From: Clostridia bacterium
GTDB lineage: Bacteria; Bacillota; Clostridia; Oscillospirales; Acutalibacteraceae
Direction: 5' to 3'
Length of the DNA stretch: 39,288 nt
NCBI GenBank assembly: GCA_017436375.1
Contig: JAFSDF010000068.1
Span: 1-39,288, forward strand
Shown: positions 4,701 to 26,278 of the stretch, piece after piece
How positions within the stretch are numbered: the stretch's first letter is position 1
Layout of the letters: each line of letters starts with the position of its first letter
Position numbers and translations under genes: made by a program
Notes under the pieces: model-generated
Database searches by the model: none
What the model was told of the DNA's origin: nothing
What the model saw: only the letters and a program-made list of their open reading frames with translations

Positions 4701-5609
4701 ACACCGGGAAATGCTACCGATAAAGACCTGACCTATAAATCAGAGGATGAATCTGTGGCCACAGTAAGCCCCGACGGTACGGTTACCCCTGTAGGTGTAG
4801 GTGAAACCGCCGTCATCATCACAGGACCTGACGGAACGAAAGTCTCTGTTACAGTAACCGTTACGGAGAAGCCTGAAGATCCAACAGACCCCGAGGAACC
4901 CACCGATCCCGAAGAACCCACTGAGCCTGAAGAACCCACTGAGCCTGAAGAACCCACTGAGCCTGAAGAACCCACCGAACCCGAAGAACCCGGATATACC
5001 ATTGAGGTTCCTGACGGCATCAATATGTTCAAGGGAGAAATCAAAGCTCTTGACATAGTAATAACACCTGACGACGGCAGTATCGTTCCCATCTTCACCA
5101 GCAGTGATGAGTCAGTAATAAGAATAGATGCTGACGGAAATATCAGAGCCGTAGGCGTAGGTATCGCCATCATTACAGCAGACTTCGGCAGCGGATACAT
5201 AAAGCTCATACCCGTCACGGTAGCCGCTATCCCCGTCAAGCACCATGTCTGCTTCGGCAAAACAGACGGCATCGGCTGGTACGAGGTATCAGTTAACGGC
5301 GGCGACTTCTTCCCCCAGGGACCCAATTCTACCCTCGAGGTTACAGACGGCTCCATTCTGGTGGTAAGAGTCCAGGATATGTGGATAGACGATGAATTCG
5401 ACTTTTATGTGAACGGCAAAAAGGTACCGCTTGATCCTGCCAATACCATTACGGTAATAGTAGACGGCTATATGCTCATTGGTGCCCTTTCGATGGATGT
5501 TCCCGTTCCCGATGTAGAGGAATCACTGAATCTCTTTGACAGACTGCTTAAGGGAATCCTCGATTTCTTTGAAGCGATTAAACGTTGGTTTGATAATTTA
5601 TTCAAATAA
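1776..5609 (+). CDS. Secreted mosaic surface protein: BspA/DUF285-type leucine-rich repeats, Listeria-Bacteroides (Flg_new) repeats, 7 Big_2 Ig-like domains, a PEEPTE linker and an unknown C-terminal domain
   Basis: I moved the start from the track ORF (1731) to the ATG at 1776, which has an AAAGGAG RBS and the signal peptide MKTSKVKKLSSFVLALIMLFTMIPTAVFTLA. About six repeats of the form F..C..L...DLS.W.TS.VT.M..MF are present. GYIFSGWTTEDAD and RYVFIGWATEDAD match Flg_new. Seven units resemble Y.SSDESVVTVD..GNITAVGEGTATVTV. Confidence 0.85.
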   Translation: MKTSKVKKLSSFVLALIMLFTMIPTAVFTLATDEALPVMKSFNAASGDDFHKYYRQVYTVTFLDSIDADAMAGAMESWDISAAGDGSVMSWMYLNEEATAEAGENRYDVYVSGEGGVQAHENTTHMFYVFSALKEVNGTEYFHTGKVKSFLYWFGNCNALEKIDLSCLDTSSATTFQYFFYNCNALREADLSSWNTSNVTSLQQMFYRCYALEYADLSGWDTSKVTNMKGVFEMTPPTGVSPDYSLKKVELTGWNTSNVTTMENMFKNCEALTELDLSAFDTSKVTTMRFMFYYCKSLKNIYVGEGWTTEAIANINDGVFNCCYALIGGTDDEQTNQEIYNDKHPSAYYPPDVTYAKTKEENGYLTDISQKPEPEKKEYTVTYEFIGDVIPEDVTAPGEAVYEEGTTVAVADKAQADGYIFSGWTTEDADINDDSFIINNDVHFVGSWSKLYTVTYKYKEGFEVPEGAPSLDSFTAEYEAGDTVDVIGMLYIDRYVFIGWATEDADVAGNMFTMPENDVVLYGYFKIPVESIEFTMDEDLVINENETTKLNVYVKPEDATVKDIIYESSDESVVTVDKYGNITAVGEGTATVTVKSADDETKSDTVTVTVKKPVTEITVEKTDFNLDKGEEAKIEAEVNDDATNKKVIYESKDESIVTVDENGNIKAVDEGTTTIIVFPEDNPDLKEEITVTVKIPVTGITAPEEITLEIGESENVNAQVNPDATNKELTYESDNPGVVKIDGDGNIIAVGEGEAVITITSKDDSSITETVKVTVKKPFVPVTGISVNKLIINLTRGETDKLTATVTPENATDKEVIFSSDDEDVVTVDKDGNITAVGTGTASITVSSKDNPELKIIIPVTVKGKNVTDIIIPEGNEDITLNVGEEKEIGASVKPDDADYGITYESSDPDIAEVTEDGKIIAKGEGTVTVTMKSEDGKAEETVKVTVRVPAEGILTDKEKYETVIGEAVKIEATVTPGNATDKDLTYKSEDESVATVSPDGTVTPVGVGETAVIITGPDGTKVSVTVTVTEKPEDPTDPEEPTDPEEPTEPEEPTEPEEPTEPEEPTEPEEPGYTIEVPDGINMFKGEIKALDIVITPDDGSIVPIFTSSDESVIRIDADGNIRAVGVGIAIITADFGSGYIKLIPVTVAAIPVKHHVCFGKTDGIGWYEVSVNGGDFFPQGPNSTLEVTDGSILVVRVQDMWIDDEFDFYVNGKKVPLDPANTITVIVDGYMLIGALSMDVPVPDVEESLNLFDRLLKGILDFFEAIKRWFDNLFK
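4875..4991 (+). repeat. In-frame 18-bp tandem repeat (about 6.5 copies) encoding (PEEPTE)n
   Basis: GAAGAACCCACTGAGCCT is perfect at 4911-4928, 4929-4946 and 4947-4964. Degenerate copies lie at 4875-4910 and 4965-4991. Confidence 0.95.
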
Positions 5610-7432: not shown

Positions 7433-7483
7433 AAAAATCCATTGTAAGGTCTGAGCTGACTTTACAATGGATTTTTTATTTTT
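7433..7483 (+). terminator. Intrinsic terminator after gtrA, which is also the first module of the dispersed repeat
   Basis: TCCATTGTAA (7438-7447) pairs with TTACAATGGA (7462-7471), followed by TTTTTTATTTTT. The sequence is homologous to the terminator at 14641-14690. Confidence 0.85.
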
Positions 7484-7764
7484 GCAGTTTATTATAATTG
7501 ATAGGTTGACGGAGGGGTTACAATAGCACCGTAGGTGCCACCTCGCAGAGCCTCCACTGAAAGGGGAGGTGGATTTGCCGAAGGCAAAGACGGAGGGGTT
7601 GCAACAGCACCGTAGGTGCCACCTCGCAGAGCCTCCACTGAAAGGAGAGATTAATCAGTGCACCTACGGTGCTGTATTGTCGTAGGGGATGGCGCCCCCG
7701 ACATCCCGTGAAGTTCTTTTCAGGTAAGCAGTAACCTTGCTTCGCAGAGTGACTTTCGTCTGAT
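7484..7764 (+). repeat. Dispersed intergenic repeat module M1 (two tandem units plus a tail), locus A
   Basis: The units at 7508-7571 and 7590-7648 are near identical (GACGGAGGGGTTRCAAYAGCACCGTAGGTGCCACCTCGCAGAGCCTCCACTGAAAGG). Related copies lie at 14547-14617 (inverted), 25871-25941 and 26041-26090. Confidence 0.9.
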
Positions 7765-7852
7765 GTATGCTTCGTCTCCCGAGGCACCTTCGCTCCGACA
7801 GTCGCTTCCCGCTCTGTCTGCTTTTCCGAAATGTTCTACAGGTGAGGCTTCG
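7765..7852 (+). repeat. Dispersed intergenic repeat module M2, locus A
   Basis: It aligns with 14009-14096 in the same orientation. A 37-nt core, GCTCCGACAGTCGCTTCCCGCTCTGTCTGCTTTTCCG, is identical at 7792-7828 and 14036-14072. Confidence 0.9.
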
Positions 7853-7933
7853 TTTTCAGCCTTCATCCTCTTTTGAAAGTTAATATGTCATCTTGAGTTA
7901 AGATATATTTCCAATAAGGCAAGAAATATCTCT

Positions 7934-8959: not shown

Positions 8960-10756
8960 TTACTTCTTATACTTTTCTGCCTGTAAATTAAACATATAGG
9001 AATAGGTTCCGTTCTGCTCCATCAGCTCCGAATGGCTTCCGCTTTCGATGATTCTGCCCTTTTCCATAACATAAATCCTATCCGCACCTACAGTGGTGGA
9101 AAGTCGGTGAGAGATGAATATAACGGTTTTATTCTTTGCCGCCTCTATCATCGCCTGATTAAGATTATATTCCGCTATGGGATCTAAATTTGCCGAGGGC
9201 TCATCCAAAATAACATAGGGACAGTTTTTGTAGAAGGCACGGGCAATTGCCACCTTCTGTGCTTCACCGCCGGAAAGCATTTTGCCTTCACTGTCAAACT
9301 CTCGCAGCAGCTCCGTATCGGTACCCTTTTCGAGCTTTTTGTCAAAACCGCTGTGTCTGAGAGCTTCCTTTACTCTTTCTTCATCATAGCTATCGCTGAG
9401 AGCCACATTTTCACCCGTCTTGCAGGCGAAAAGCTGGAAATCCTGAAACACTGCCGCAAAGCGGTCGCGGTGCGAGGAAACGGTAACCTCCCTGATGTCT
9501 TCGCCACCGATAAGTATCTGTCCGTCGGTGACATCGTAGAGACGGAGCAGAAGATTTGTCAGCGTAGTCTTGCCTGCACCGTTATAGCCGACGAGAGCGA
9601 TTTTCTCACAGGGCTTTATGGTCAGACTGATGTCCCGGAGCGTAGGCTCGCTGTTTCCCGGATAGGTGAAATCCAGATTTCTAATCACGATTTCCTTTGG
9701 CTTATCACAGACGGCTGTTTTTTCGCCGTCCTTTATTTTCGGCTCATATTTCAGAAATTCACGGTATTTCTCTATCATCTTTCCTCTTTCAGAGAAAATG
9801 GCCACAGCCCACACAGTCAGAAAGTTTACGGACACGGCGATAGAATATGCACCGTTGAAGGCGGCTACGAAATCACCTGCCGAAAGAGTTTCCTTTACCA
9901 GCACACAGTAACCGAGATAAAGAGGCAGTAAAAACATAAAGCCTAATATCTGTATGCCCGCATCCTGTATGAAGGAGACGAAGGAGATCTTTTTCCAGTA
10001 CCTTTTCTGATTATCAATAACATCGTCCGCCGCATCGTTATAACGGTCAATAAGAATGGGATGGATATTATTCATTCTTACTTCCTTGGCATAGTCCTGA
10101 AGGTAAAAAATACGCTGGAAATAGTCACTTCTGCGGTGGTACTCCGTGTTATCCCTTCTTCTCGCCATCTGAAGGTCTCCCCTCTTTTTACTCAGAGGCA
10201 GAAATACACCGATAATTCCGAGAATTATCAGCAGACACACAGGATCGATGGTAAGAAGGACACCGCCTATGGTAACGAAGGAAACAAGGTTACCCACATA
10301 GTTTCTCACAAGTCCTAAAAGATTAGCGATATTATCTGACGAGGACTCAATAGTAAGTATAAAGCTGTTATAAAATTCAGGGTCATCATAATTTGAAAGG
10401 TCTACGGATTTAGCCTTTTCATAGAGAGTTTTGTTCAGTCCGTAATACACTCTTTCTCTGGCTACATTCCAGAAAAACTCCTGAAAAAGCCAGGTAAAAA
10501 GCTTGCTTCCCACTAAAATGACAGCAATTAAGCCTACTGCCGTGAAAATTCTTTCGAGCCTTTCTCCCTCGGTAACCACATCGATAATATACTTAAGGCC
10601 CACCACGCTGATAAGCCTTGTGGGCAGTGTGGTAAGAATGCCTATCATAAAGTCACCGATAACAAGCACGGGTGAGATTTTAAAAAGAAGGCCTACGAAA
10701 AAGAATATGTTCGAGAAGGTGGAGTGGGCAGTTTCTCTTTTTTTCTTATCAGTCAT
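8960..10756 (-). CDS. ABC exporter, fused permease/ATPase half-transporter (second subunit of a heterodimer)
   Basis: I moved the start to MTDKKK (ATG at 10756), which overlaps the upstream stop by 8 nt (ATGACTGA). It has Walker A GYNGAGKTT, signature LSGGEAQK and Walker B ILDEPS, and the N-terminal half contains 6 TM segments. Confidence 0.85.
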   Translation of the reverse strand: MTDKKKRETAHSTFSNIFFFVGLLFKISPVLVIGDFMIGILTTLPTRLISVVGLKYIIDVVTEGERLERIFTAVGLIAVILVGSKLFTWLFQEFFWNVARERVYYGLNKTLYEKAKSVDLSNYDDPEFYNSFILTIESSSDNIANLLGLVRNYVGNLVSFVTIGGVLLTIDPVCLLIILGIIGVFLPLSKKRGDLQMARRRDNTEYHRRSDYFQRIFYLQDYAKEVRMNNIHPILIDRYNDAADDVIDNQKRYWKKISFVSFIQDAGIQILGFMFLLPLYLGYCVLVKETLSAGDFVAAFNGAYSIAVSVNFLTVWAVAIFSERGKMIEKYREFLKYEPKIKDGEKTAVCDKPKEIVIRNLDFTYPGNSEPTLRDISLTIKPCEKIALVGYNGAGKTTLTNLLLRLYDVTDGQILIGGEDIREVTVSSHRDRFAAVFQDFQLFACKTGENVALSDSYDEERVKEALRHSGFDKKLEKGTDTELLREFDSEGKMLSGGEAQKVAIARAFYKNCPYVILDEPSANLDPIAEYNLNQAMIEAAKNKTVIFISHRLSTTVGADRIYVMEKGRIIESGSHSELMEQNGTYSYMFNLQAEKYKK

Positions 10757-12901: not shown

Positions 12902-13420
12902 TCACTTAAGCCTGATTCTCGAGCAGATTCTCTCCAGACACAGCACCATAAAGACTATCTGTACCGTACCCATAACTGCCGCCTGACCGAGTCGGGAAAC
13001 AGCAGTAGCAGTAAAGGGAGCACCGTAAAGAGATGAAATCCAGTAGCTGTTCATCAGCACCGTACAGAGAAGCTGAGACAGAAGCACCGAAAGAATGATA
13101 CGGGGCTTGCTCGTTTTCTTGCCTAAAAACAGTCCGTAAATCAGACCGCTAACCGCTGCCGTAAGAGTGAAGCCCGGAAAATAGGCCCCGGTAGTGGGAA
13201 AAGCCACAGCACCGATAAAGTCACCCAGACCGTAGACCGTCACCGCTCCTAAAACACCGAATCTTCTCGCCGCAATAACCACAGGAATGAAGGAGAAGGA
13301 TATGCGCAGACTCTCACTCAGAGGGATGACCAGTATTCTTGCGATTACTATCTGCATGGCAGTCAGTAGGGCAAGACAAACAAGGGTGAAGATTTTCTCT
13401 TCATTTTTTCTTTTCGACAT
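12902..13420 (-). CDS. folT: Folate-family ECF transporter S component
   Basis: I moved the start to MSKRKNEEK (ATG at 13420, AAAGGAAG RBS), giving 172 aa that are hydrophobic throughout. The gene lies directly downstream of a THF riboswitch. Confidence 0.8.
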   Translation of the reverse strand: MSKRKNEEKIFTLVCLALLTAMQIVIARILVIPLSESLRISFSFIPVVIAARRFGVLGAVTVYGLGDFIGAVAFPTTGAYFPGFTLTAAVSGLIYGLFLGKKTSKPRIILSVLLSQLLCTVLMNSYWISSLYGAPFTATAVSRLGQAAVMGTVQIVFMVLCLERICSRIRLK

Positions 13421-13486
13421 AAAAAAACACTTCCTTTGTTTTTGCCCCGCAAATGAATAAACAAAGAAAGCTATATTCCTGATTTT

Positions 13487-13585
13487 CACAGCGGGATGCG
13501 GCCTGAATATCGCAGATAAATCCTTTCGTCTCTGAAGCAACTCCCCGTCTTCAGAGCACTGAACGCACTCAAGCCTACTCTGTTT
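13487..13585 (-). promoter_or_regulatory. THF-I (tetrahydrofolate) riboswitch
   Basis: The minus strand reads ACAG-AGUAG-GCUUGAGU-GCGUU-CAGUG-CUCUGAAG-ACGGGGAGUUG-CUUCAGAG-ACGAA-...-UUCAGGCC-GCAUCCCG-CUGU. All hallmark blocks are present (AGUAG, GCGUU, GGGAGU, ACGAA, GCAUCC), along with the P1 pairing ACAG/CUGU and an 8-bp P3. Confidence 0.85.
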
Positions 13586-13600
13586 TTCGTTATTAAAAGA

Positions 13601-13629
13601 ATAATACCACCAATAATGCACATTGTCAA
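13601..13629 (-). promoter_or_regulatory. Sigma-70-type promoter driving the THF riboswitch and folT
   Basis: On the minus strand, TTGACA (13624-13629) is followed by a 17-nt spacer and TATTAT (13601-13606). Confidence 0.6.
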
Positions 13630-14008
13630 GAAAAACTGAATTCCGATATTACATTATAATTATAATGTATACATAAATGACTGAAACACCCTTAAATGCT
13701 TCGGATAACAGTAGGTTCTTTACGCTCAAGCCGCTCGGCTTTTACTTTGCCCGGGGCGGCAAAGTAAACAAAACGCCCTTCAGCGGAAACAATCCGAACG
13801 AAGAAAAGTAACGGAGTAAGGTTTTTAGTTTCCTTTATATAGCTTCCTTAGTCTGCCGCTTAGTTAAAAACGGCCTTTCTGCACTACCGTTATTTTCAGT
13901 TCTATGTTACTGCCATACCGACAGAAAGAAGGCAGGCAGTACTTTTTTGAAAACTTGTACAGGGAAATCGCTGCCGTAGTCCCTCCCCGCACAGATATTT
14001 CGTCTAAT

Positions 14009-14096
14009 ATATGCTTTGTCTCCTTAAGTATATCCGCTCCGACAGTCGCTTCCCGCTCTGTCTGCTTTTCCGTAAAGTTCTACAGGTAAGGCTTCG
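14009..14096 (+). repeat. Dispersed repeat module M2, locus B
   Basis: Homologous to 7765-7852, with a 37-nt identical core at 14036-14072. Confidence 0.9.
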
Positions 14097-14439
14097 AAAA
14101 GTTAACCGCACCTATCGAATTAAGGAGTACCCCATAAAATTAAAAGCACGGACTTTCCTTTTTCCAAAGTTTTCCCCCACAGTTCTGCTTACGGTTTCAG
14201 TAGGACTACCTGTAAAGATAAAGGACGCGTAACGGCGTGTACATAAAAAAGAACTACGGGAAAACCCGACGAAAAATGGAGATAAGGTGACTTTTCAGCG
14301 GTGATAATCTGTTTTTTCGGTAGTGCTGTCTGTAAATACACAGTAAACCGGCAGAATGAGGAAGTAGCGTAAATCAATTCCTTAAACTTTTTTTCGAAAA
14401 AATCAAATTAGCATCCGACGAGTCGTATATTCACAGCAT

Positions 14440-14640
14440 CCGAAAAGCGGTTTTGGTGACTTTTGCCAAGACAAAAGTCACTCTGCGAAGCAAATATCAC
14501 TGAATGTTTTCCTGAAACTGAGAAACCCCTTCGTCTGCTCCTGTTGGTCGCATCCACCTCCCCTGAAAGTGGAGGCTCTGCGATGTAGCATCTTCGGTGC
14601 TATTAGAACTCTCCGTCAATCCATCAATTATAATAACTTA
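14440..14640 (-). repeat. Dispersed repeat module M1, locus B (inverted relative to locus A)
   Basis: The reverse complement aligns with 7484-7760. Shared segments include TTATTATAATTGAT, the GACGGAG...CGCAGAGCCTCC...GGAGGTGGAT unit and the TTGCTTCGCAGAGTGACTTT tail. Confidence 0.9.
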
Positions 14641-14690
14641 AAAACAAAAAATCCACTGTGCAGGTCTGCTGACCTTTACAGCGGATTTTT
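14641..14690 (-). terminator. Intrinsic terminator after the giant Big_2 gene, homologous to the 7433-7483 terminator
   Basis: The minus strand reads AAAAAUCCGCUGU...ACAGUGGAUUUUUUGUUUUU: a 9-bp stem with one G-U pair, followed by a U-tract. Confidence 0.85.
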
Positions 14691-14699
14691 ATGCTCTTT

Positions 14700-17600
14700 T
14701 TATCCCTCCACGGCTTCGACTACCGTAAGAGTATATGTATCGGTAAGCTCTTCGCCGTCAGTAGTGGTTACCTTTACAGTGATTTTAACTGTACCTGTAT
14801 CCATACCCTGGACAGAGCCGTCCGTCTGATCGATAATCTTTGCGATCTCTTCGTTTTCGGAAATAAATACGATGCTTTCTATATTATCCGCATCGGCAGG
14901 AAGAACGCTGAACTCCACAGCCGTAATACCGTTAGTTACCACTGTTTCTCTGTCCTTTACAAATTCAACACCTGCTACAGGCTCGATTACGGTAAAGGGT
15001 AAGGTGTAGGTTTTTCCGGAAATACTGCTCGTTATTATGATGTTTGCCGTACCTCTGGCCTTAGCGGTAATTATGCCGTTTTCACTCACATCGGCAATAT
15101 CCTCATTATCACAGGTGAAGCTGAGCTTTTCATCGTGGTCGATGGGCTGTGCTGCAAAGACGGTGTATATGTCAGCCTCGGCTCCCTTTTTCATTATCAG
15201 AGGCAGAGAAATGAAGCCTTCGATTTCCTTGTAAACCTTGACTCTGCATACAGTCTTATAGCCGCCCTCGAGAGAGGTTACGGTAATGTCAGCCTCGCCC
15301 GCCTTATGAGCAGTTACGACACCGTTTTCGTCTACGGAGGCGATGTCGGCATCGGCACTTTCGTAGATGACATCCTTAACCGTAGCATTCTCAGGCTGAT
15401 AAACCACCTTAAGAGAAGCGGTTTCACCCTTTCTCAGACCGATCTCGCTTTCCTGAAGGTAGATGGTTATAAGCGGCACCTTGACAGTAACGGTACATTC
15501 TGCATAAGCCTCGGGATTATCCACGGCTGTAGCCCTGATTACGGCTGTACCTGACTTATCCGTGGCGGTTACCTTACCCTTACTGTCTACGGTAGCTACC
15601 GTGTCATCAGAGGTAGTCCAGATAACCTTTTTCACATCAGCATTTTCGGGAAGAACCGAGAAGGCAAGAGTCTCCGAAGCACCTCTGTCGAGTAAAAGCT
15701 CAGTTTTACTGAGTGAAACAGAATCGATGCCTGTTCTGATTTCTACCAGACAGCCGCCCTTAAAGCCGCCGTCCTCTGTCTCAGCCGTTACAAATACGAA
15801 GCCCGGCTCGTAAGCTGTGAGAACACCGTCAGCATCTACACCGGCCATCCTCTCATCACTTACTGTCCAGATTATGTTTTTGTTGTCGGCATCTGCAGGC
15901 AGAACCTCGGCCTCTATCTTGAGACCTCTGCCCACATAAGCCACTGCATCAGAGACTACATTGATTGCTTCCGCGTGCTTTCTGACTGTCACCTCACATA
16001 CAGAGGTGATGCCTGTATCCTCTGCGGTAACGGTAACGGTAGCCGTACCCTTGCCCACAGCCTTCACTTTACCTTCGCCGTCTACAGTGATTACTTCGTC
16101 GGCTGAGGAGGTGAAGGTCACATTCTTATTCGTAGTATCCTCGGGAAGAACTGCGGCACCGAGGGTGAACTCCTCACCGATATAAAGCTCATATCTTTCA
16201 GCCGTGAGCTCTATTTTTTCACTGAGAACATAAACCGAAACCTTACACTCAGCATACACATCCTCTGTCTCAGTCTGTGCTTTAATGACAGCATTACCTG
16301 CCTTAAGAGCCGTTACGAGACCGTTTTCATCTACCTTAGCCACTTCCTCATCAGAGGAGGTATAGATGACTTTCGTTTCAGTCACATTATCGGGAGTGAG
16401 TACGGGAGTGAGCTGATGTGTTTTATTCTTTTCTACTGAAAGCTCTGCTTCCATTTCGATTTCAGCGGGGAGCACGATAATCTTTATTTCGCATGTTTTC
16501 TCTACCTTGCCGCAGGCGGAGGTAAGCGTTACGGTGGCTGTGCCTGTACCTACGGTAGTAACCTTTCCGTCCTCGACGGTAAGAATATCCTTGTCTGAGG
16601 AGGTATAGGTAACCGTCTTGTCAAAGGCATTCACGGGAAGCACCTCAGGCCCGAAGGTGTAGGACTCGCCCAGCTTAAGGATTACGGATGTATCGGGAAT
16701 AATTATGTCAGTTATCTGCTGTCTTACGGTGAAGGTATACTCTGCTGCAGCACTTGTACAGGCTGAAAGAGCGGTTATTACTACCTCGGCAGTGCCTGTC
16801 TCTCCTGCTGAAAGAGCCGTTACGAGACCGTTTTCGTCTACTGTGGCGATGCTTTCATCAGAGGATGTGAAGGTAACGGTTTTATCCGTAGTGTCCTCGG
16901 GAAGAACGAGAGCATTAAGAAGTACACTGTCGCCTATCCAGAGATTATCTGTTTCTGCCGTAAGCTCGATAGCTTCTGCGTGCTTTACTACGGTTACCTT
17001 GACCGTAGCGGTAATTCTGCCCGTGTCTGCGGCGGTGGCAGTGATGAGTGTTTCACCTGCTCTGATACCTGTTACGGTGCCGTTTGCCACGGTAGCTACC
17101 GAAGACTCAGAGGATTCCCACTTGAGAGTTTTATCGTTTGCATTTTCGGGAAGAGCCTGGACGCCGAGGGTAAGCTTTTTACCTGCGCCTACGGTGTATT
17201 CGCTTTCAGTGAAGACTATCTCCTCCACAAGCTGTTTGACAGTAAAGGTACATTCTGCCGTTTTACCCTCGTCCTCAGTAGTGACGGTAACTGTGGCAGT
17301 GCCTCTGCCCACAGCGGTAACCACACCGTTTTCGTCTACGGAAACTACATTTTCATCTGAGGAGGTGAAGGTAACCTTCTGATTATGTGCATCACTGGGT
17401 GACACTGTAGGAATTAGTGTGCTTGTTTCACCCTTATTGAGTGTTACATCAGTTTTATCGAGAACTACACCGTCAACCTTCTTGACGATATGGATGTTGA
17501 TTTCCTTGGTTACTCCGGGATTATCCACGCTTATTATTCTGACTCTGCCGCTACCCATCGAAAGACCTGTAATCACACCGCTGTCGCAGGTGAAGTATTC

Positions 17601-20600
17601 GTCACCTGAGAGGATTTCCCATCTGACTTCGGGGAAGGAGGCATTCTCGGGAAGAATCGTGGCGACAATACTCTGTGAGTAAGCCTCACCGATTTTAATG
17701 TAGAAGTCATCAGCCTCTGTAGTGATTTCCTCTACGGGCATAAAGCAGGTAACCCTGCAGGTGGCCTCGAAGCCGCCGTCGGCAGTGGTGGCGGTGATAA
17801 CTGCCTCACCTGCTCCCACAGCGGTAACGGTACCGTTTTCATCCACCGCAGCGATGCTTTCATCGGAGGAGGTCCAGATAACGGTCTTGTTGATGTATTC
17901 ACCGATATTGGGAGAATCGGGATATACGGTGGGAGTAAGCTTGACCTGTTCATCTCTGTAAAGAGAAGGCACCTCGGTTATGTCGAGCACTATGCCTGTT
18001 ACAGGCTCATTGACTGTTATGTGACAGCTGGCGGTGAAATCTCCGTCGTCTGTAGTGGCATAAACCGTAGTTTCGCCGCAGTTCACACCTGTGAGCTTGC
18101 CATATTTATCTACGGTGGCTATTCCCTCATTTTCGGGAGTCCATGTGATATTTTTATTGAAGGCGTCAGCGGGCTCGACTGTAGCATTGAGCCATACCTC
18201 TGCATCTCTGTTAACAGTGATTTCTGCCTTTTCGAGAGTAATTCCCGTAACATGCTGTAAAACCGTAACGGTGCAGTCCGCTGTCTTTTTGCCGTCGGCA
18301 GTGGTAACGGTAATGAGTGCCACACCTGATTTCACGGCAGTAACCAGACCGTTTGCGGAAACCTTGGCTACTGAAGAATCGGAGGAGGCCCAGGTGACTG
18401 CCTTATCGGTTGCGTTGGCCGGAGAAACAGTAGCTGCGAGCTGCATAGTCTGTCCCACGCCGTATTTATCGATATAGAGCGTTTCGGCGGTTTCATTTAA
18501 CTCTACTCCAACCACTCTCTCTATAACCGTAACCTTACAGGTTGCGGTCTTGTTATTTTCCTTGGATGTGACAGTAACCGTAGCCGTACCGGGAGCCTTG
18601 GCAGTAATCACACCGGTGGCGGAAACTGTCGCTATATTTGTATTTGAAGAAGCGAAGGTATAGCCCTTTTCCGTAGCATTTGCAGGGCTGACGGTAACCT
18701 TAAGAGCGGCCGTGGCACCCCTTTCGAGGGAAACTGCACTTCTGTCCACTGAAACAGCCGTTACATGCTGCTTGACCGTTACGGTGCAGGTAGCTTTTTT
18801 ACCGTTTTCGCTCTTTACGGTTATTACGGCTGTGCCCACCTTCTTCGGTGTTATCTTACCGCCGCTGACGGTAAGAACCGATGTATCCGAAACAGACCAT
18901 GTGAACTTCTGATTGTTTGCATTGGTGGGAAGAACATTAGCCTTCAGAGTAAGGCCTTCACCCATATAAACAGATGCGGAGGTCTTGCTGATATAAATAG
19001 AGGTAACGGGCTGCTTTACCGTGATTTTACACTTGACGGTTATACCTCTTTCACTCTTTGCGGTGATGGTGGCAGTACCTCTGCCCTTTGCAGTGATGAC
19101 ACCCTTTGAGGAAACGGTGGCTACCTTTTTGTTACTCGAGGTAAAGGTTATTCCCTCTGTGGCATTTGAGGGCTTTCTCGTCACCTTGAGGGTATAGGTC
19201 TTACCTGCATCGAGAGTAAGCTTTTTCTTATTCAGAGTAAAGCTTTTCAGCTTTCTCTTTACGGAAACCTTACAGGTAGCCTTGAGTCCGCCGTCGTCGG
19301 TGGTAACGGTAATATTGGCAGTGCCTGTCTTTTTCGGAGTGATAGTACCGGATTTGGAAACGGTAGCCACGCTCTTTTTGCTCGACTTCCATTTTACATC
19401 GGGATTGCTCGGCTTTTTGGGATTGAGAACTGCATCAAGCTTATCCTTTTCGCCCAGATAAACCGTAAGAGTCTTCGGCAAGGATACACTCTTGACTCTC
19501 TTTACTACGGTAACCTTACAGGTAGCCTTGAGGCCGCCATCCTTAGTGATAACAGTAATAGTAGCCGTACCTGTGGAAACGGGCTTCACTACACCCTTTG
19601 AGGTAACCTTGACTACCTTTTTATTGCTTGAGGTCCACTTGAGAGCCTTATTGCTGGCATCGGAGGGCTTTATGGTAGCCTTGAGAGTAAGCTTTTCATC
19701 TATGTCGATAATAGCCTTGGTTTTATTGAGCTTCACGCTCTTTACGGGCTGATTTACAAATACGGTACACTCTGCCTTTTTACCGCTGTCAACGGAGGTA
19801 CAGGTGATAACCGCGTAGCCCGGTGCCTTGGCGGTGATTTTTCCGTTTTTAACCTTTACCACATCGTTATCGCTCGACTTCCAGGTTACCTCCTTGTTTG
19901 AGGCACTCTTGGGAGAAATGGTAGGAGTGATGGTGGTCGTCTTTCCTACGGCAATGGTAATGGAGGTTTTATTGAGCTTTACCTTCTTTACGGGCTTGAT
20001 AACCTCTACCTTAATGGTGGCACTGTAAAGGCTGTTGGCAGTGGTGGCGGTTATTTTTACCGTACCCTTCTTCAGACCTGTTACGGTACCGTCAGCGGCT
20101 ACCTTTGCTATCTTTTCATCGGAGGAGGACCAGATAACATTTTTGTTTGATGCTGTCTCGGGAAGAATGATGGGGTTGAATTTCTTCGGTGTGCCTATTC
20201 TTACCGTAGTTTTCTTGGATTTGAATTTGATACCCGTAGGCGGCTGTGTAACGGTGACCTTCACGGTAGTTTTGGCATAGCCGTCTGCAGATGCACAGGT
20301 AACCGTAGCCGTACCTGCGGCCACAGCAGTAACTACACCCGAGGAGCTTACCGTAGCAATTTTCTTATTGCTGGACGACCATTTGACATCCTTGTTCGTA
20401 GCACCTACCGGTCTGATTTCGGGAGAAAGAGTCTTCTTTTTACCTGCATCAAGAGTAATACTCGAATATTCGAAGGAAAGTGAGGTCACCGGCTGGATAA
20501 CATCTACATCAATAACATCCACATATCTGCCGTCATTGGTGGTTACGGTGAGGGTGGTGGAGCCCACTCTCTTACCCTCAACCTGTCCGGTGCTGCTTAC

Positions 20601-23195
20601 GGAAATAACCGAGGAGCCTGCTGTCCAGGTTACTCTCTGGTCTGTAGCATTGGCAGGTGAAACCGTAGCGGTGACGCTTCTCTTTTCACCCTTCGGAACG
20701 GTAAGGGAGCTGTAATTGATTTTTACGCCTGTTACCGGAATGACTACATTGACCTTACAGGTGGCACGGTAAAGATTATTCGGTGTGGAAGCCGTAACGG
20801 TAACAGTACCTGCTTTAATACCTTTGACCATACCGTTGGCATCTACCGTAGCTACCTTAGTATCAGAGGAGGTCCAGGTTATTGGCATATCGGAGGGATT
20901 GCTGCTTGCTGCGAGAATGAGAGCCGATGTAGAGCCTACGGGAACCTGTACCGAGGTGCTGTAAAGCTCGATGGGGCCAACTACATAAATCTCACAGTAA
21001 TCGGTTTTTTCTCCGTCAGTGGTTTTAACCTGAATCTTAGCCTTGCCGGGAGCATTGGCTGTAACGGTACCGTTTGAAACAGAGGCTACCTTTGCATTGC
21101 TTGTGGACCAGGCTACGGTTTTATCCGATGCGTTATCGGGGCTTACGGTTTCATAAAGGTAAACCGTAGATCCGACCTTGGTATAAACGGTCTTTTTACT
21201 CATATTGAGCGTAACGCCCGTCACCTCAACCTTAGGCTCGGTGAACACAGTACACTGAGCAGTGAGAATCCTGCCGTCGTAGGTGGTATAGGTGGCGGTG
21301 ATGGTAGAGCTGAGGTTTGCACCTCTGGCAGTAAGCATACCGGTGTTTCTGTCTACGGAAACAGCTCCGCTGTTTGATGAGGTCCATACGACTGTTTTAT
21401 TTGTAACTGTGGCTGAATTGAATTCGATTTTGAGCTGATATTTCTGCTCCTTGTACAGCTTTGAGGTAGGAGCATTGGTGATACGGATGCTCGTAGCATC
21501 CTCGGAAACGGTAACTCTGCAGGTTGCCTTGGCTCCGCCGCTTTTCGTGGTACAGGTAATGGTAGCCGTACCGCCTGCCACGGCAGTAACCTTACCGTCA
21601 GAATCGACTGTAGCCACCTTAGTATCAGAGGAGGTCCAGCTTACATTTTTGTTTGTAGCCGTGTCGGGATTAACGGTAGCGATGAGAGTTTCACTTGAAT
21701 TCGTACTGCTTCCCACTCTGAGAGAGAGAGCAGTCTTTGAAAGTGATACACTGGTGGGAGGAACCTCCACGCTTACCTCACACACGGCAATGTATCCGCC
21801 GTCATTGGTTTTTACGGTAATTTCAGCCTTTCCCTCGCTTTTACCGGAAACGATGCCCTTATCGGAAACTGTGGCTACATTGGGATTATCGGTAGACCAG
21901 GTGACCTTTTTATCCGAAGCATTTGAGGGCTCGAAAGCAGGAGAGAGGACCATCGTTCCGCCTACCCAGCAGACAGCATTTTTAGGAAGGGAAATGCCCT
22001 TTACGGGCTGTGTTACGGAAACGGTGCACTCTGCCTTAAGATTAGTTCCGTCGGCAGTGGTGGCGGTAATTTTCGCTGTGCCCGGGCCTACGGCCTTGAC
22101 TATACCGAGAGAGTCAACGGTAGCCACAGCGGTATTCGAGGACTTCCATTCCACCGCATCTGTATAGGTAATGCCGCCACTGAGCTCACAGGTGGCAGTA
22201 AGGTCTGTATTTTTATCTCCGACCTTCATAGCGAGAGAGGTTTTATCGAGAGTTATGCTCTTTGTACCGTCTGATACAACCACATAGGTTTTCGCAGTGA
22301 TGTTACTGCCGTCGGTGGTTCTGGCTGACACATAGGTCACACCTGCACCCTTCGGTGTTATGACACCGAGAGCATCCACCAGACAGACATTGGTATTGGC
22401 GCTCCACCATTCCAGATCCTTTTTAACAGCGGTGGCGGGAAGAATTTTACGGTCAACTGCATAGCCCGTAGTGGATTCGGTAACTACTACATGGGGAGGC
22501 AGAGAGAGAGTTTTGATGAGAGGATTGACCGTTACGGTAAATGAGCCCGATTTATTTGTTCCGTCGGTGGCGGTATAGGTTACGGTAGCCGTACCCTCAC
22601 CTGCACCGTAAATGTCGGCATAAGCCTGAGGATTATTGCTGTCAAGACCCGAGGAAAGGATTTTTACCACATTTTCATTTGAGGACTTCCAGCGCAGCTC
22701 CTTATAGGTGGCAGTAGCAGGCTCCACACTGACTTTTATTCTTTCCGTGCTTTGCTCCATAATGCTCAGCTTTTCGCCGCCTACAGGCTTCAGACTGTCC
22801 ACAGGGATGAAATCGAGGACCTTGATTCTGCTTCCGTAAGCGTAGGTGTAGTTGACACCCATATAGGTATAGGTGGCCGAAAGGTTAACGGTAACCTCAC
22901 CTGCCTTTATACCCTTTACCCTGCCGTTTTCGTCTACGGTGGCAATCGAGGTATCTCTCGAGGTCCATTTGTAGGTAAGGTTATCGGTTACGACCTCACC
23001 GCCGAAGGTAGCCACAGGTGTAAGGGTACCCTCAGCATTTACCAGTACGGTAATTTCATCGAAGTAAACCTCGAAGCTGTTCTCCGCCGCTACGGCAGAA
23101 ACAGCGAAGTCAAAAAACTCCGAAAGCGGTGAAAAAGGCACTGATGAAAAAATCATCACCGCACACATAAGGAATGCCAGAATTCTCTTTGTCAT
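14700..23195 (-). CDS. Giant secreted protein of about 33 tandem Big_2 (bacterial Ig-like group 2) domains
   Basis: 2831-aa uninterrupted ORF with the signal peptide MTKRILAFLMCAVMIFSSVP...AVAAENS. I counted 33 repeats of the signature K.V.W.SS....A.V...G.VTA...G.A.ITV. No other domain type and no C-terminal anchor motif are visible. Confidence 0.9.
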   Translation of the reverse strand: MTKRILAFLMCAVMIFSSVPFSPLSEFFDFAVSAVAAENSFEVYFDEITVLVNAEGTLTPVATFGGEVVTDNLTYKWTSRDTSIATVDENGRVKGIKAGEVTVNLSATYTYMGVNYTYAYGSRIKVLDFIPVDSLKPVGGEKLSIMEQSTERIKVSVEPATATYKELRWKSSNENVVKILSSGLDSNNPQAYADIYGAGEGTATVTYTATDGTNKSGSFTVTVNPLIKTLSLPPHVVVTESTTGYAVDRKILPATAVKKDLEWWSANTNVCLVDALGVITPKGAGVTYVSARTTDGSNITAKTYVVVSDGTKSITLDKTSLAMKVGDKNTDLTATCELSGGITYTDAVEWKSSNTAVATVDSLGIVKAVGPGTAKITATTADGTNLKAECTVSVTQPVKGISLPKNAVCWVGGTMVLSPAFEPSNASDKKVTWSTDNPNVATVSDKGIVSGKSEGKAEITVKTNDGGYIAVCEVSVEVPPTSVSLSKTALSLRVGSSTNSSETLIATVNPDTATNKNVSWTSSDTKVATVDSDGKVTAVAGGTATITCTTKSGGAKATCRVTVSEDATSIRITNAPTSKLYKEQKYQLKIEFNSATVTNKTVVWTSSNSGAVSVDRNTGMLTARGANLSSTITATYTTYDGRILTAQCTVFTEPKVEVTGVTLNMSKKTVYTKVGSTVYLYETVSPDNASDKTVAWSTSNAKVASVSNGTVTANAPGKAKIQVKTTDGEKTDYCEIYVVGPIELYSTSVQVPVGSTSALILAASSNPSDMPITWTSSDTKVATVDANGMVKGIKAGTVTVTASTPNNLYRATCKVNVVIPVTGVKINYSSLTVPKGEKRSVTATVSPANATDQRVTWTAGSSVISVSSTGQVEGKRVGSTTLTVTTNDGRYVDVIDVDVIQPVTSLSFEYSSITLDAGKKKTLSPEIRPVGATNKDVKWSSSNKKIATVSSSGVVTAVAAGTATVTCASADGYAKTTVKVTVTQPPTGIKFKSKKTTVRIGTPKKFNPIILPETASNKNVIWSSSDEKIAKVAADGTVTGLKKGTVKITATTANSLYSATIKVEVIKPVKKVKLNKTSITIAVGKTTTITPTISPKSASNKEVTWKSSDNDVVKVKNGKITAKAPGYAVITCTSVDSGKKAECTVFVNQPVKSVKLNKTKAIIDIDEKLTLKATIKPSDASNKALKWTSSNKKVVKVTSKGVVKPVSTGTATITVITKDGGLKATCKVTVVKRVKSVSLPKTLTVYLGEKDKLDAVLNPKKPSNPDVKWKSSKKSVATVSKSGTITPKKTGTANITVTTDDGGLKATCKVSVKRKLKSFTLNKKKLTLDAGKTYTLKVTRKPSNATEGITFTSSNKKVATVSSKGVITAKGRGTATITAKSERGITVKCKITVKQPVTSIYISKTSASVYMGEGLTLKANVLPTNANNQKFTWSVSDTSVLTVSGGKITPKKVGTAVITVKSENGKKATCTVTVKQHVTAVSVDRSAVSLERGATAALKVTVSPANATEKGYTFASSNTNIATVSATGVITAKAPGTATVTVTSKENNKTATCKVTVIERVVGVELNETAETLYIDKYGVGQTMQLAATVSPANATDKAVTWASSDSSVAKVSANGLVTAVKSGVALITVTTADGKKTADCTVTVLQHVTGITLEKAEITVNRDAEVWLNATVEPADAFNKNITWTPENEGIATVDKYGKLTGVNCGETTVYATTDDGDFTASCHITVNEPVTGIVLDITEVPSLYRDEQVKLTPTVYPDSPNIGEYINKTVIWTSSDESIAAVDENGTVTAVGAGEAVITATTADGGFEATCRVTCFMPVEEITTEADDFYIKIGEAYSQSIVATILPENASFPEVRWEILSGDEYFTCDSGVITGLSMGSGRVRIISVDNPGVTKEINIHIVKKVDGVVLDKTDVTLNKGETSTLIPTVSPSDAHNQKVTFTSSDENVVSVDENGVVTAVGRGTATVTVTTEDEGKTAECTFTVKQLVEEIVFTESEYTVGAGKKLTLGVQALPENANDKTLKWESSESSVATVANGTVTGIRAGETLITATAADTGRITATVKVTVVKHAEAIELTAETDNLWIGDSVLLNALVLPEDTTDKTVTFTSSDESIATVDENGLVTALSAGETGTAEVVITALSACTSAAAEYTFTVRQQITDIIIPDTSVILKLGESYTFGPEVLPVNAFDKTVTYTSSDKDILTVEDGKVTTVGTGTATVTLTSACGKVEKTCEIKIIVLPAEIEMEAELSVEKNKTHQLTPVLTPDNVTETKVIYTSSDEEVAKVDENGLVTALKAGNAVIKAQTETEDVYAECKVSVYVLSEKIELTAERYELYIGEEFTLGAAVLPEDTTNKNVTFTSSADEVITVDGEGKVKAVGKGTATVTVTAEDTGITSVCEVTVRKHAEAINVVSDAVAYVGRGLKIEAEVLPADADNKNIIWTVSDERMAGVDADGVLTAYEPGFVFVTAETEDGGFKGGCLVEIRTGIDSVSLSKTELLLDRGASETLAFSVLPENADVKKVIWTTSDDTVATVDSKGKVTATDKSGTAVIRATAVDNPEAYAECTVTVKVPLITIYLQESEIGLRKGETASLKVVYQPENATVKDVIYESADADIASVDENGVVTAHKAGEADITVTSLEGGYKTVCRVKVYKEIEGFISLPLIMKKGAEADIYTVFAAQPIDHDEKLSFTCDNEDIADVSENGIITAKARGTANIIITSSISGKTYTLPFTVIEPVAGVEFVKDRETVVTNGITAVEFSVLPADADNIESIVFISENEEIAKIIDQTDGSVQGMDTGTVKITVKVTTTDGEELTDTYTLTVVEAVEG

Positions 23196-25602: not shown

Positions 25603-25631
25603 TTGACAAACCGGGTGCGCTTGTGTATAAT
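25603..25631 (+). promoter_or_regulatory. Perfect consensus sigma-70 promoter driving the 5S rRNA gene
   Basis: TTGACA (25603-25608), a 17-nt spacer, then TATAAT (25626-25631). A leader hairpin, GCATACG...CGTATGC, begins at 25633. Confidence 0.75.
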
Positions 25632-25676
25632 AGCATACGTTGATTGAACGAATGCGTATGCAAAAGCGTATCGTTA

Positions 25677-25793
<117 letters not shown>

Positions 25794-25798
25794 CAACT

Positions 25799-25830
25799 TA
25801 ACCACAGCAAAGGCTGTGGTTTTTTTATTT
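25799..25830 (+). terminator. Intrinsic terminator after the 5S rRNA
   Basis: AACCACAGC-AA-AGGCTGTGGTT is followed by TTTTTTATTT. Confidence 0.8.
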
Positions 25831-25870
25831 ATATTACAACTAAAATCCGAACACAAAGCGTGAAAAAATA

Positions 25871-26220
25871 TAACAGCACTGAAGGTGCCGCATCGCAGAG
25901 CCTCCGCTTTTAGGGGAGGTGGCAGCGAAGCCGACGGAGGGATATCCTCTGCGGACACAATGCATTGTGTCCCTACGATATATGCATTTATTCGATGGTT
26001 TATCATTTTCTGTTTTAGGAAGTATTCCGCACCCGTTTAGCGTTACAATAGCACCATAGGTGCCACCACGCAGAGCCTCATCCTGAAAGGTAATTCCCTC
26101 TGTTACAGGGAGTGTCACGAAGTGACGAGGGAGTGCCCGTTCCCGGAGGGAAAGGTGGCACGGCTATGCCGTGACGGAGGGGTTATAGCGTTTAGCACTT
26201 AAAGTATCGGTCTATCATTA
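25871..26220 (+). repeat. Dispersed repeat locus C (M1-type units plus extra hairpin modules)
   Basis: M1-like units lie at 25871-25941 and 26041-26090, and GACGGAGGGGTTA recurs at 26173-26185. A 20-bp perfect palindrome, GGACACAATGCATTGTGTCC, lies at 25953-25972. The triloop hairpins GTCAC-GAA-GTGAC and CACGGC-TAT-GCCGTG are present. The segment 26185-26220 is homologous to the reverse complement of 35216-35250. Confidence 0.85.
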
Positions 26221-26243
26221 CATCTTTCCGTAAATCTTTCACG

Positions 26244-26278
26244 GCATTCTGCATTCTGCATTTTGCATTCTGCATTCA
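26244..26278 (-). repeat. Heptamer tandem array, (GAATGCR)5 read on the minus strand, abutting the ArsC-family gene stop codon
   Basis: The plus strand reads GCATTCT GCATTCT GCATTTT GCATTCT GCATTCA. The last unit contains the stop codon (26276-26278). Confidence 0.9.

Follow-up and report, generated by a model that had tools for sequence, protein, structure and literature searches.

Among the described families of short bacterial repeats, the closest to the sequences studied here are the bacterial interspersed mosaic elements (BIMEs) of Proteobacteria, in which repetitive extragenic palindromes (REPs) go together with REP-associated tyrosine transposases (RAYT, or TnpA-REP); the palindrome-associated transposable elements (PATEs), derived from IS200/IS605 insertion sequences (IS) and moved as single-stranded DNA (ssDNA); the BOX elements of Streptococcus pneumoniae; and the miniature inverted-repeat transposable elements (MITEs), such as Correia/NEMIS, RUP and ERIC. 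A genome usually carries tens to hundreds of copies of a REP family, and BOX, a modular intergenic Firmicute repeat of the form boxA-boxB(n)-boxC, is transcribed and exceeds 100 copies per genome. To our knowledge, nearly all work on REP/BIME systems and RAYT enzymes has been done in Proteobacteria. Here we describe a non-coding repeat of three short hairpins (H1, H2 and H3), which we call M1, and a second module, M2, in a 39,288-nt stretch of a Clostridia bacterium of the Acutalibacteraceae (assembly GCA_017436375.1, contig JAFSDF010000068.1, positions 1 to 39,288; henceforth the window). M1 occupies three intergenic spacers, namely locus A (between gtrA and a 2-hydroxyacid dehydrogenase gene), locus B (downstream of a giant Big_2 gene) and locus C (between a 5S rRNA gene and an ArsC-family gene). 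M1 is a gained, dispersed and modular repeat, and the reading that we favour, with a probability of roughly 0.55, is that M1, M2 and the surrounding modules form a non-autonomous, BIME-like hairpin mosaic of a narrow Acutalibacteraceae/Clostridia clade, probably moved in trans as ssDNA hairpins by an enzyme of the HUH (histidine-hydrophobic-histidine)/Y1 type.

M1 resembles each of the known systems in part. Like BIMEs, it is extragenic, lies mostly at gene 3' ends or between convergent genes, arranges short hairpins and conserved linkers in fixed order and orientation, occurs in tandem and partial copies whose presence varies between relatives, and is accompanied by hairpins with a canonical GTAGG head directly before a GC-rich palindrome. 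Unlike BIMEs, it consists of three 5-6-bp hairpins with no GTAG head and a long conserved unpaired core, is apparently low in copy number, resides in a Clostridia host and has no RAYT gene that we could see in the loci examined. With PATEs it shares the absence of terminal inverted repeats and of a clear target duplication, subterminal hairpins at both ends (H1 and H3) with conserved flanking tetra- to dodecanucleotides, strand-specific hairpin features, and an internal-deletion derivative that keeps its ends (in L026, one of the loci from other genomes, which we denote by L numbers). It differs from them in that no parent IS or TnpA was identified in the loci examined, no defined target tetra- or pentanucleotide is evident and, with M1 copies pointing both ways within 20 kb, there is no evident replication-strand bias either. 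The likeness to BOX is one of architecture only, no sequences having been compared: variable internal modules in hairpin-rich, intergenic, non-coding DNA of a Gram-positive genome, with no transposase of its own; neither the high copy number nor the transcription of BOX is established for M1. MITEs are similarly short (50-250 nt), non-coding and dispersed, and can carry terminators or extend untranslated regions (UTRs), but M1 lacks their terminal inverted repeats and consistent target duplications.

A gained, dispersed and modular repeat

We located M1 using a degenerate motif, GCACNNNAGNTGCNNCNNCGCAGAGCCTC, which covers the first hairpin and the conserved core. The motif matches the window five times (7526+, 7607+, 14572-, 25876+ and 26051+) and yields no match in 100 dinucleotide shuffles of it, and a repeat finder independently recovered the same M1 family together with the M2 pair. 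Reading these sequences alongside copies from other genomes places the natural unit between ACAAYAGCACC and GACGGAGGGGTT, i.e., ~81 nt with three short hairpins. A first-pass annotation, made without database searches, had described a unit of about 65 nt; the repeat itself stands, with different boundaries, as the proposed start is the tail of a preceding truncated unit and the real first copy, A1, occupies 7520-7600 (81 nt, plus strand). A covariance model trained on nine M1 copies (about 10 good copies are known overall) scored A1 at 91.9 bits (E = 3e-24), and folding gave its layout as H1 (GCACC-GTA-GGTGC), core CGCAGAGCCTCC, H2 (CCTCC/GGAGG with inner CT-GAA-AG), H3 (TTTGCC-GAA-GGCAAA) and tail GACGGAGGGGTT. 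Copy A2 (7601-7649, plus strand; from the repeat list) stands in tandem with A1 at 81-nt spacing, is 95% identical to it and is truncated inside the 3' arm of H2; this 81-nt tandem was not reported by Tandem Repeats Finder (TRF). It is followed by an inverted 5' fragment of M1, ACAATACAGCACC-GTA-GGTGC (7658-7681, minus strand), delimited by sequence reading, which the covariance model picks up as a diverged variant with a weak match at 7602-7685(-) (17.8 bits).

The remaining copies vary around the same plan. Copy B (14525-14607, minus strand, 85.8 bits), ending in the tail GACGAAGGGGTT, has one C-A mismatch in H1, the H2 loop CTTTCAG and a decayed H3. Copy C1 (25870-25945, plus strand, 86 bits) has a T-G pair in H1, the H2 loop CTTTTAG and the H3 GC-GAA-GC. 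Copy C2 was correctly recognised as a repeat in the annotation, which gave only its 5' part (26041-26090): it is a long variant of 140 nt (26045-26184, plus strand, 73.8 bits), with H3 CACGGC-TAT-GCCGTG and an insert of ~60 nt (about 26082-26150) in the H2 loop that recurs in L002 and, inverted, in L020. M1 thus exists as full, tandem, truncated, inverted and internally deleted copies, the last with their ends kept, and the repeat units have no coding capacity. M2 is present in two window copies of 87% identity in the repeat finder (7754-7852 and 13998-14096, both plus strand), as had been proposed, with a longest identical run of 38 nt (7791-7828) instead of the 37 nt first counted; it has no copy in any other locus compared.

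Outside the window, the strict M1 motif occurs once each in 4 of 185,579 representative genomes, namely two Acutalibacteraceae metagenome-assembled genomes (MAGs) and two 'Clostridia bacterium' MAGs (one from sheep rectum), and in one metagenome contig, L020, the single true copy among nine stretches matched in a metagenome motif scan. The other eight were rejected as chance matches in coding or GC-rich DNA, as was L003 from the genome scan. The model detected diverged variants at L020 543-618(-), with H2 GCTCC/GGAGC and H3 CAAAACC-GTA-GGTTTTG, and at L004 5379-5469(+). At L001, L002, L004, L005 and L020 the neighbours of M1 are ordinary housekeeping genes, different at each locus (e.g., KduI and a major facilitator superfamily transporter; pyruvate kinase and a Ddl/Mur ligase; LexA and a peptidase M23; HisRS). 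M1 is therefore no local accident of this contig: it recurs beside unrelated genes in at least five other genomes or contigs, which bears out the annotation's dispersed, modular, non-coding hairpin repeat family. The family is narrow and, by the strict motif, low-copy; its own genome has five M1 copies in the 39-kb window and, according to the covariance model, no full unit in a further 12 kb. Five contigs (L006-L010) represent the same strain (identical GtrA protein) and are identical at the locus A spacer, hence uninformative for polymorphism. In L011 (Logan SRR12529063) there is one M1 unit, compared with two in the window (7508-7649) and the five same-strain contigs, a difference of 81 nt; the missing unit may reflect real copy-number variation or assembly (de Bruijn-graph) collapse, the latter being possible because the tandem units have 39 nt of exact identity.

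Through 2-hydroxyacid dehydrogenase orthologues (91-96% identity) we reached syntenic loci in five further genomes. The window's locus A spacer spans 513 nt, compared with 51, 48 and 37 nt in L024, L031 and L032 (with gtrA adjacent), where it consists of a single bidirectional terminator. The locus B spacer, from the giant Big_2 gene to the gene for an energy-coupling factor (ECF) transporter component with its tetrahydrofolate (THF) riboswitch, measures about 1,280 nt in the window and 268-333 nt in L021, L023, L024, L031 and L032. At locus C the orphan 5S gene is conserved and the downstream sequence differs in every relative. There, L026 carries module X (described below) at the ArsC stop codon and no full M1, and two tandem 48-nt units, ATTGTGTGTTACAACAAGGTTCCCGAAGGCAAAGCGTGAGGGGTTCTT, lie right after its 5S terminator (reverse complement of about 10510-10605). 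These units keep only the M1 ends, GTTACAA ... CCGAAGGCAAAG-CG-GAGGGGTT, and constitute an internal-deletion derivative; homologous to them is a decayed 'mini' unit, ATTACAAC...CAAAGCGTGA, after the window's own 5S terminator (25830-25866, plus strand). In about 155 kb of syntenic relatives the covariance model found no full M1 unit. Because the relatives' spacers are compact and without full M1, serving as empty orthologous sites, the repeats are extra DNA gained in this lineage and turning over between close relatives.

M1 corresponds to no known Rfam RNA and to no known annotated mobile element, and represents a lineage-specific variation on a familiar type of bacterial repeat. A check for known families in Rfam gave no match in the three spacers at gathering score or E <= 10 (in the window, only the THF riboswitch and 5S rRNA pass) and nothing in the M1 regions of L001, L002, L004, L005 and L020. 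The M1 motif has no match in viral contigs, and neither the region-A spacer against plasmids nor the region-C spacer against phages gave a BLAST match. As the annotation had noted, the window has no transposase: no such domain was found among the open reading frames (ORFs) scanned or with precomputed Pfam hits. Nor did a Y1/HUH gene (PF01797) turn up among the ORFs of L001, L002 and L004 or the Pfam hits precomputed for L021-L032. Since no transposase lies adjacent, we consider the M1 units non-autonomous. A tRNA-derived origin was rejected, as the window contains neither tRNA nor tmRNA genes, and so was mimicry of the 16S rRNA 3' end (helix 45 and anti-Shine-Dalgarno), whose local alignment was no better than with shuffles.

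These searches also bear on the idea that M1 is what remains of a larger element, i.e., a group II intron, an IS200/IS605 end or guide RNA, or a fragment of an rRNA operon. M1 does follow shortly after terminators, which are a known target of some bacterial group II introns, and has a GAGCC...GAAA motif recalling intron domain V, but neither Intron_gpII nor any other Rfam family matched at E <= 10. Copy C1 follows a 5S rRNA gene; resemblance to the 16S 3' end does not exceed chance. No remnant of a reverse transcriptase, TnpB or transposase is present in the ORFs scanned, and defined unit ends recur in different genomes. We consider such an origin very improbable.

Hairpin structure and transcription

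RNAalifold and single-sequence folds agree on three local hairpins in M1: H1 reads GCACC-NNA-GGTGC; H2 has the stem (G)CCTCC/GGAGG(T) and, inside it, a CT/AG pair that closes a 3-nt loop; and H3 is a sequence-variable hairpin immediately before the tail GACGGAGGGGTT. In an unbiased MAFFT alignment of nine strong copies, 93.5% of helix cells are paired. Covariation, which the annotation had proposed as a check on the stems, was detected for H3 alone, where compensatory changes affect 3 pairs and 12 cells and the covariation score was reached in none of 500 shuffles; H1 and H2 do not covary and are simply invariant. The proposal that the H1 stem is kept as its loop varies held up (GTA, GTA, GAA, GAA and ATA across copies), with the one C-A mismatch already mentioned in the 14.5-kb copy. 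We rejected a longer stem enclosing H2 ('long REP', GTGCCA/TGGCAC), which shows no covariation, is 85% paired with a 9-10-nt bulge and shares bases with the H1 3' arm and the H3 5' arm.

Loop variation in H2 had been taken as the mark of a stem-mediated micro-inversion. The loop reads CTGAAAG in A1, A2, C2 and most copies elsewhere, and the CTTTCAG of copy B is its exact reverse complement. B and C1 (CTTTTAG) are mutual closest relatives in the H2 segment (94% over 32 nt), so that one stem-mediated inversion in an ancestor shared by the two explains their loops more parsimoniously than three substitutions do. The exact flip thus stands, and what supports a micro-inversion amounts to one event. 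The enrichment of C-GNA-G mini-hairpins that the annotation had pointed out is both real and strand-specific: on the M1 sense (plus) strand we counted five such triloop hairpins against 0.1 expected (reached in 0 of 500 shuffles), two of them being the duplicated hairpin of A1 and A2, and on the opposite strand only one. The H3 of C1, GCGAAGC, is what we take to be the classic hyperstable DNA mini-hairpin.

Structure of this kind could also be explained if M1 were a structured RNA, i.e., a 3'-UTR stabiliser, a processing or protein-binding site, or a small RNA (sRNA), transcribed with the upstream gene and acting, for example, by blocking 3'-exonucleases or through Shine-Dalgarno-like GGAGG/CCTCC pairing; if true, this would be a new structured RNA class. 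The compensatory changes in H3 and the high proportion of paired helix cells fit such a role, as do G-U pairs on the sense strand (T-G in C1 H1 and G-T at the H2 base) and the strand-specific loop bias, but the invariance of H1 and H2, the lack of an Rfam match, and the tandem, truncated, inverted and internally deleted copies, which typify repeat DNA and not a functional RNA gene, do not. Orientation cuts both ways. M1 is co-oriented with the upstream gene at A, B, C1 and L001, whereas C2 and the copies in L002, L004, L005 and L020 run antisense to the gene that they adjoin at its 3' end. At locus A, the whole insert comes after the 2-hydroxyacid dehydrogenase stop codon and before the only terminator; it is probably transcribed, though as antisense M1. 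M1 sits downstream of strong intrinsic terminators (z about -8) without its own promoter or U-tract (no T-run follows any of H1-H3, which argues against an intrinsic terminator within M1), and close relatives, with intact flanking genes, lack it in these spacers. Taken together, we regard an RNA function as quite unlikely, and the annotation's option of an sRNA or 3'-UTR family, for which we found no positive support, is the less likely one. Its related claim that M1 follows the orientation of the upstream gene holds for A, B and C1 and fails for C2, which is antisense to the 3' end of the ArsC-family gene; as a general rule it had to be given up, being largely explained at A and B by the terminator in a duplicated block.

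Mosaic architecture and spread

Besides M1 itself, the copies after gtrA and after the giant gene have a common terminator hairpin and leader. At locus A, the terminator (7433-7476, plus strand), found in a terminator scan, has an A-run, a 19-bp stem and a T-run, looks bidirectional and folds as DNA at -15.2 kcal/mol (z = -8.3). It is followed by the leader TTATTATAATTGATAGGTTGACGGAGGGGTT (7489-7519, plus strand), whose final ~19 nt are a 5'-truncated M1 unit (3' arm of H3 plus the unit's tail); for comparison, L004 5303-5384(-) has the complete hairpin CAACC-GTCA-GGTTG and then ACGGAGAGG. At locus B, the paralogous terminator (14645-14689, minus strand; -15 kcal/mol, z = -7.6) stands after the gene for a 2,831-aa Big_2 protein, and a homologous leader with truncated M1 tail, TTATTATAATTGATGGATTGACGGAGAGTT, occupies 14608-14637 (minus strand), according to the repeat list and alignment. 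The two loci align over about 180 nt (terminator, leader TTATTATAATTGATRGRTTGACGGAG and M1), with 85% identity over the central 86 nt and an identical truncated M1 tail at the left edge; the terminator at 7433-7476 aligns with that of locus B and not with the same-position terminators of relatives. Given the same truncation point and alignable terminators unlike those of the relatives, A and B are copies of one 'terminator + leader + M1' block. The repeat list also links a 25-nt repeat, TTGCTTCGCAGAGTGACTTTCGTCT, at 7737-7761 (plus strand) to a 96% complementary partner at 14469-14493 (minus strand).

Such a block raises the alternative that the repeats spread passively, through illegitimate or homologous recombination, slippage, gene conversion and import of tracts from related strains, with no dedicated mobilisation and with spacers that tolerate them. 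Copying of a ~180-nt block with its terminator and truncation point is what this alternative would predict, and modules have been reordered and reoriented (at B, the second M2 copy runs opposite to the M1/terminator block, and next to A2 lies an inverted fragment). Spacers turn over quickly anyway, as terminators differ among all relatives; locus C, compared with L026, shows a replacement of sequence and no clean insertion; and no transposase was found. Four observations run the other way: a composite of REP-like element, M1 and X/heptamers recurs with the same internal junctions beside unrelated genes in different genomes, derivatives keep their ends, the accompanying GTAGG palindromes match what a known enzyme family uses as substrate, and strand-biased GNA loops together with H3 covariation indicate selection on hairpin formation. 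We consider purely passive spread unlikely.

The composite is best seen in other genomes, where a REP-like element stands 5' of M1 and TGCATTC-type heptamers 3' of it, the order REP, M1, heptamers and stop codon being found in L002, L004, L005 and L020. The junction 'REP (CCCTACG), 0-4 nt, ACAAYAGCACC' is the same in L004, L005 and the window (7658-7709), where the inverted M1 fragment is joined to a REP-like hairpin as in those two loci. This order and junction are based on about 10 cases, and the alternating REP orientation of BIMEs is not shown. The REP-like form is GTAGG(G), a GC-rich palindrome and GC, with 7-10 paired positions and a loop of 2-7 nt. Scanning for a GTAGG head followed by a palindromic hairpin, with at most one mismatch allowed, we found two in the window and 12 in the M1-bearing loci (L001, L002, L004 with 6, L005 and L020), one more match in L028, further along the window's own genome (11903-), and none outside coding sequence in the syntenic relatives. 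The two window elements lie at 7681-7709 (plus strand; GTAGG head, then GGGATG...CATCCC; DNA fold z = -2.6) and 25951-25977 (GTAGG head on the minus strand; palindrome GGACACAAT..ATTGTGTCC, supported by folding), the latter 100% identical over 28 nt to its L005 counterpart. The REP-like elements conform to a published REP descriptor, i.e., GTAG or GTGG 0-2 nt 5' of a 7-20-bp stem with a 2-5-nt loop (PMC6006769), and resemble REPs tabulated with their RAYT genes (PMC2817692). By analogy, canonical REP-like elements in Clostridia MAGs hint at a RAYT-type system in this clade.

On the other side of M1 in locus C lies module X (26206-26278, plus strand), which consists of GGTCTATCATT, a hairpin and 4.9 heptamers GCATTCT, as defined by TRF and by comparison with L004 and L026. 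Its end overlaps the stop codon of the ArsC-family gene (26276-26278, minus strand), and the module adjoins LexA in L004 and ArsC in L026. The M1, linker and X composite of 240 nt in the window (beside ArsC) matches its L004 counterpart (beside LexA) over 130 nt at 88% identity; because the match stands beside different genes, composites recur as units at unrelated loci. The mosaic as a whole colonises terminator-proximal, gene-free DNA.

We therefore return to the BIME-like reading, which we favour because the dispersal, the empty orthologous sites, the varied copies, the fixed order with GTAGG palindromes, the strand-biased triloops, the covarying H3 and the lack of coding capacity are together typical of REP/BIME and IS200/IS605-derived elements. 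Under this reading, units would be recognised as ssDNA hairpins on one strand, that of the C-GNA-G triloops, with the conserved unpaired CGCAGAGCC and GACGGAGGGGTT as putative sites of protein contact or cleavage. They would be moved or copied in trans by an HUH/Y1 enzyme, of RAYT or IS200/IS605 type, encoded elsewhere in the genome, and arrays could then grow and shrink by slippage and by recombination between short common motifs. Effects on the host (longer 3' UTRs, hairpins at mRNA ends, replaced terminators) would be a by-product.

Several observations weigh against this reading. M1 has no GTAG head: within the unit, GTAG is confined to the H1 loop and 3' arm of copies A1 and A2, the others having GAAG or ATAG there, and M1 stems reach only 5-6 bp where the REP definition asks for 7-20 fully paired nt, a loop of 2-5 nt and a GC-rich foot. 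There are no terminal inverted repeats between the M1 5' end, GTTACAAYAGC, and the reverse-complemented 3' end, AACCCCTCCGTC, and no clean insertion with unambiguous target sites was recovered: ATTATAAT flanks the ~1-kb locus B insert and TAGCGTT flanks C2, single cases in AT-rich DNA with nothing comparable at other copies. No HUH/RAYT gene was seen in the window or the loci examined, and copy number is low, with the strict motif once per genome in only four genomes. Copies A and B belong to one copied block and are not two independent insertions. All copies were ascertained by a motif containing CGCAGAGCC, which makes the invariance of that core partly circular; and a DNA-only model does not predict that M1 follows the upstream gene's orientation in the four examined cases. 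M1 itself thus lies outside both the REP and the MITE definitions and is set apart from both: of the annotation's REP/BIME- or MITE-like proposal, a REP/BIME-like family with mosaic dispersal remains, in agreement with the GTAGG companions found here, and M1 as a REP or as a strict MITE (no terminal inverted repeats, no consistent target duplication) had to be dropped.

A bolder version, which we put forward only tentatively, is that the REP-like GTAGG hairpin, M1 and TGCATTC heptamers together might be the footprint of an undescribed ssDNA system of HUH/RAYT type in Clostridia, with strand-specific C-GNA-G mini-hairpins for recognition, homing between stop codon and terminator and replacing terminators. 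Finding GTAGG palindromes together with a three-hairpin M1 in gut and rumen Clostridia would extend REP/BIME biology to a major uncultured group. The window also offers a concrete case in which repeats lengthen 3' UTRs from about 50 to about 500 nt and swap terminators between close relatives. In practice, repeats of this kind break metagenome assemblies and can be strain markers. With the family narrow and its function putative, its importance is moderate either way.

Terminators, heptamers and neighbouring genes

Terminators at orthologous positions have unrelated stems in each close relative (L021, L023, L024, L031 and L032). Within one genome, by comparison, two loci can have similar terminators, as in the window and in L024 (CTGTAAAAAAC...GTTTTTTACAG type). 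The sequences suggest that terminators themselves may be copied between loci.

Arrays of 3-5 heptamers (TGCATTC, GCATTCT and variants of these) run to within 0-2 nt of a stop codon on the opposite strand or overlap it. They were found at 26244-26277 in the window and at L001 1307-1334, L004 7219-7246, L005 1679-1699, L020 937-971 and L026 10353-10373, and the adjoining genes differ between genomes (ArsC-family, LexA and others). On the sense strand of the gene the array reads TGA-ATGCAGAATGCA..., so that an ATG occurs in each of the three frames. The heptamers of the window, L001, L004 and L026 belong to a conserved module of ~70 nt (GGTGTATCATT, hairpin, heptamers). A small ORF running through the heptamers, readable in the window and L004, was rejected, as heptamer number shifts the frame and the ribosome-binding site is not conserved.

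The lone 5S rRNA gene at locus C (25677-25793, within the region 25604-25821) has its own TTGACA/TATAAT promoter and terminator and lies between a helix-turn-helix gene and the ArsC-family gene. The gene is conserved in relatives (L025, L026 and L027), and in L027 it is tandemly duplicated including the promoter. At locus B, some 800 nt of the insert (13670-14468) contain many small hairpins, e.g., TACTTTGCC-CGGG-GCGGCAAAGTA at 13743-13765; this part has no ORF of at least 80 aa, no Rfam match and no match in the compared loci except M2 and the 25-nt repeat. Beyond it, the THF riboswitch (13487-13584, minus strand, 84 bits) lies upstream of the S component of the ECF transporter, with a promoter TTGACA-17-TATTAT at 13629-13601, and a GTG-start 'ORF' at 12902-13621 overcalls the gene start across the riboswitch. 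Two protein-coding regions contribute further repeats to the window. An 18-nt tandem repeat at 4870-4991 encodes a Pro/Glu-rich (PEEPT-like) linker in a 1,292-aa Big_2/DUF285/leucine-rich-repeat surface protein, and the gene for the 2,831-aa Big_2 protein (14700-23195), built of domain repeats of about 250 nt, dominates the window's repeat list.

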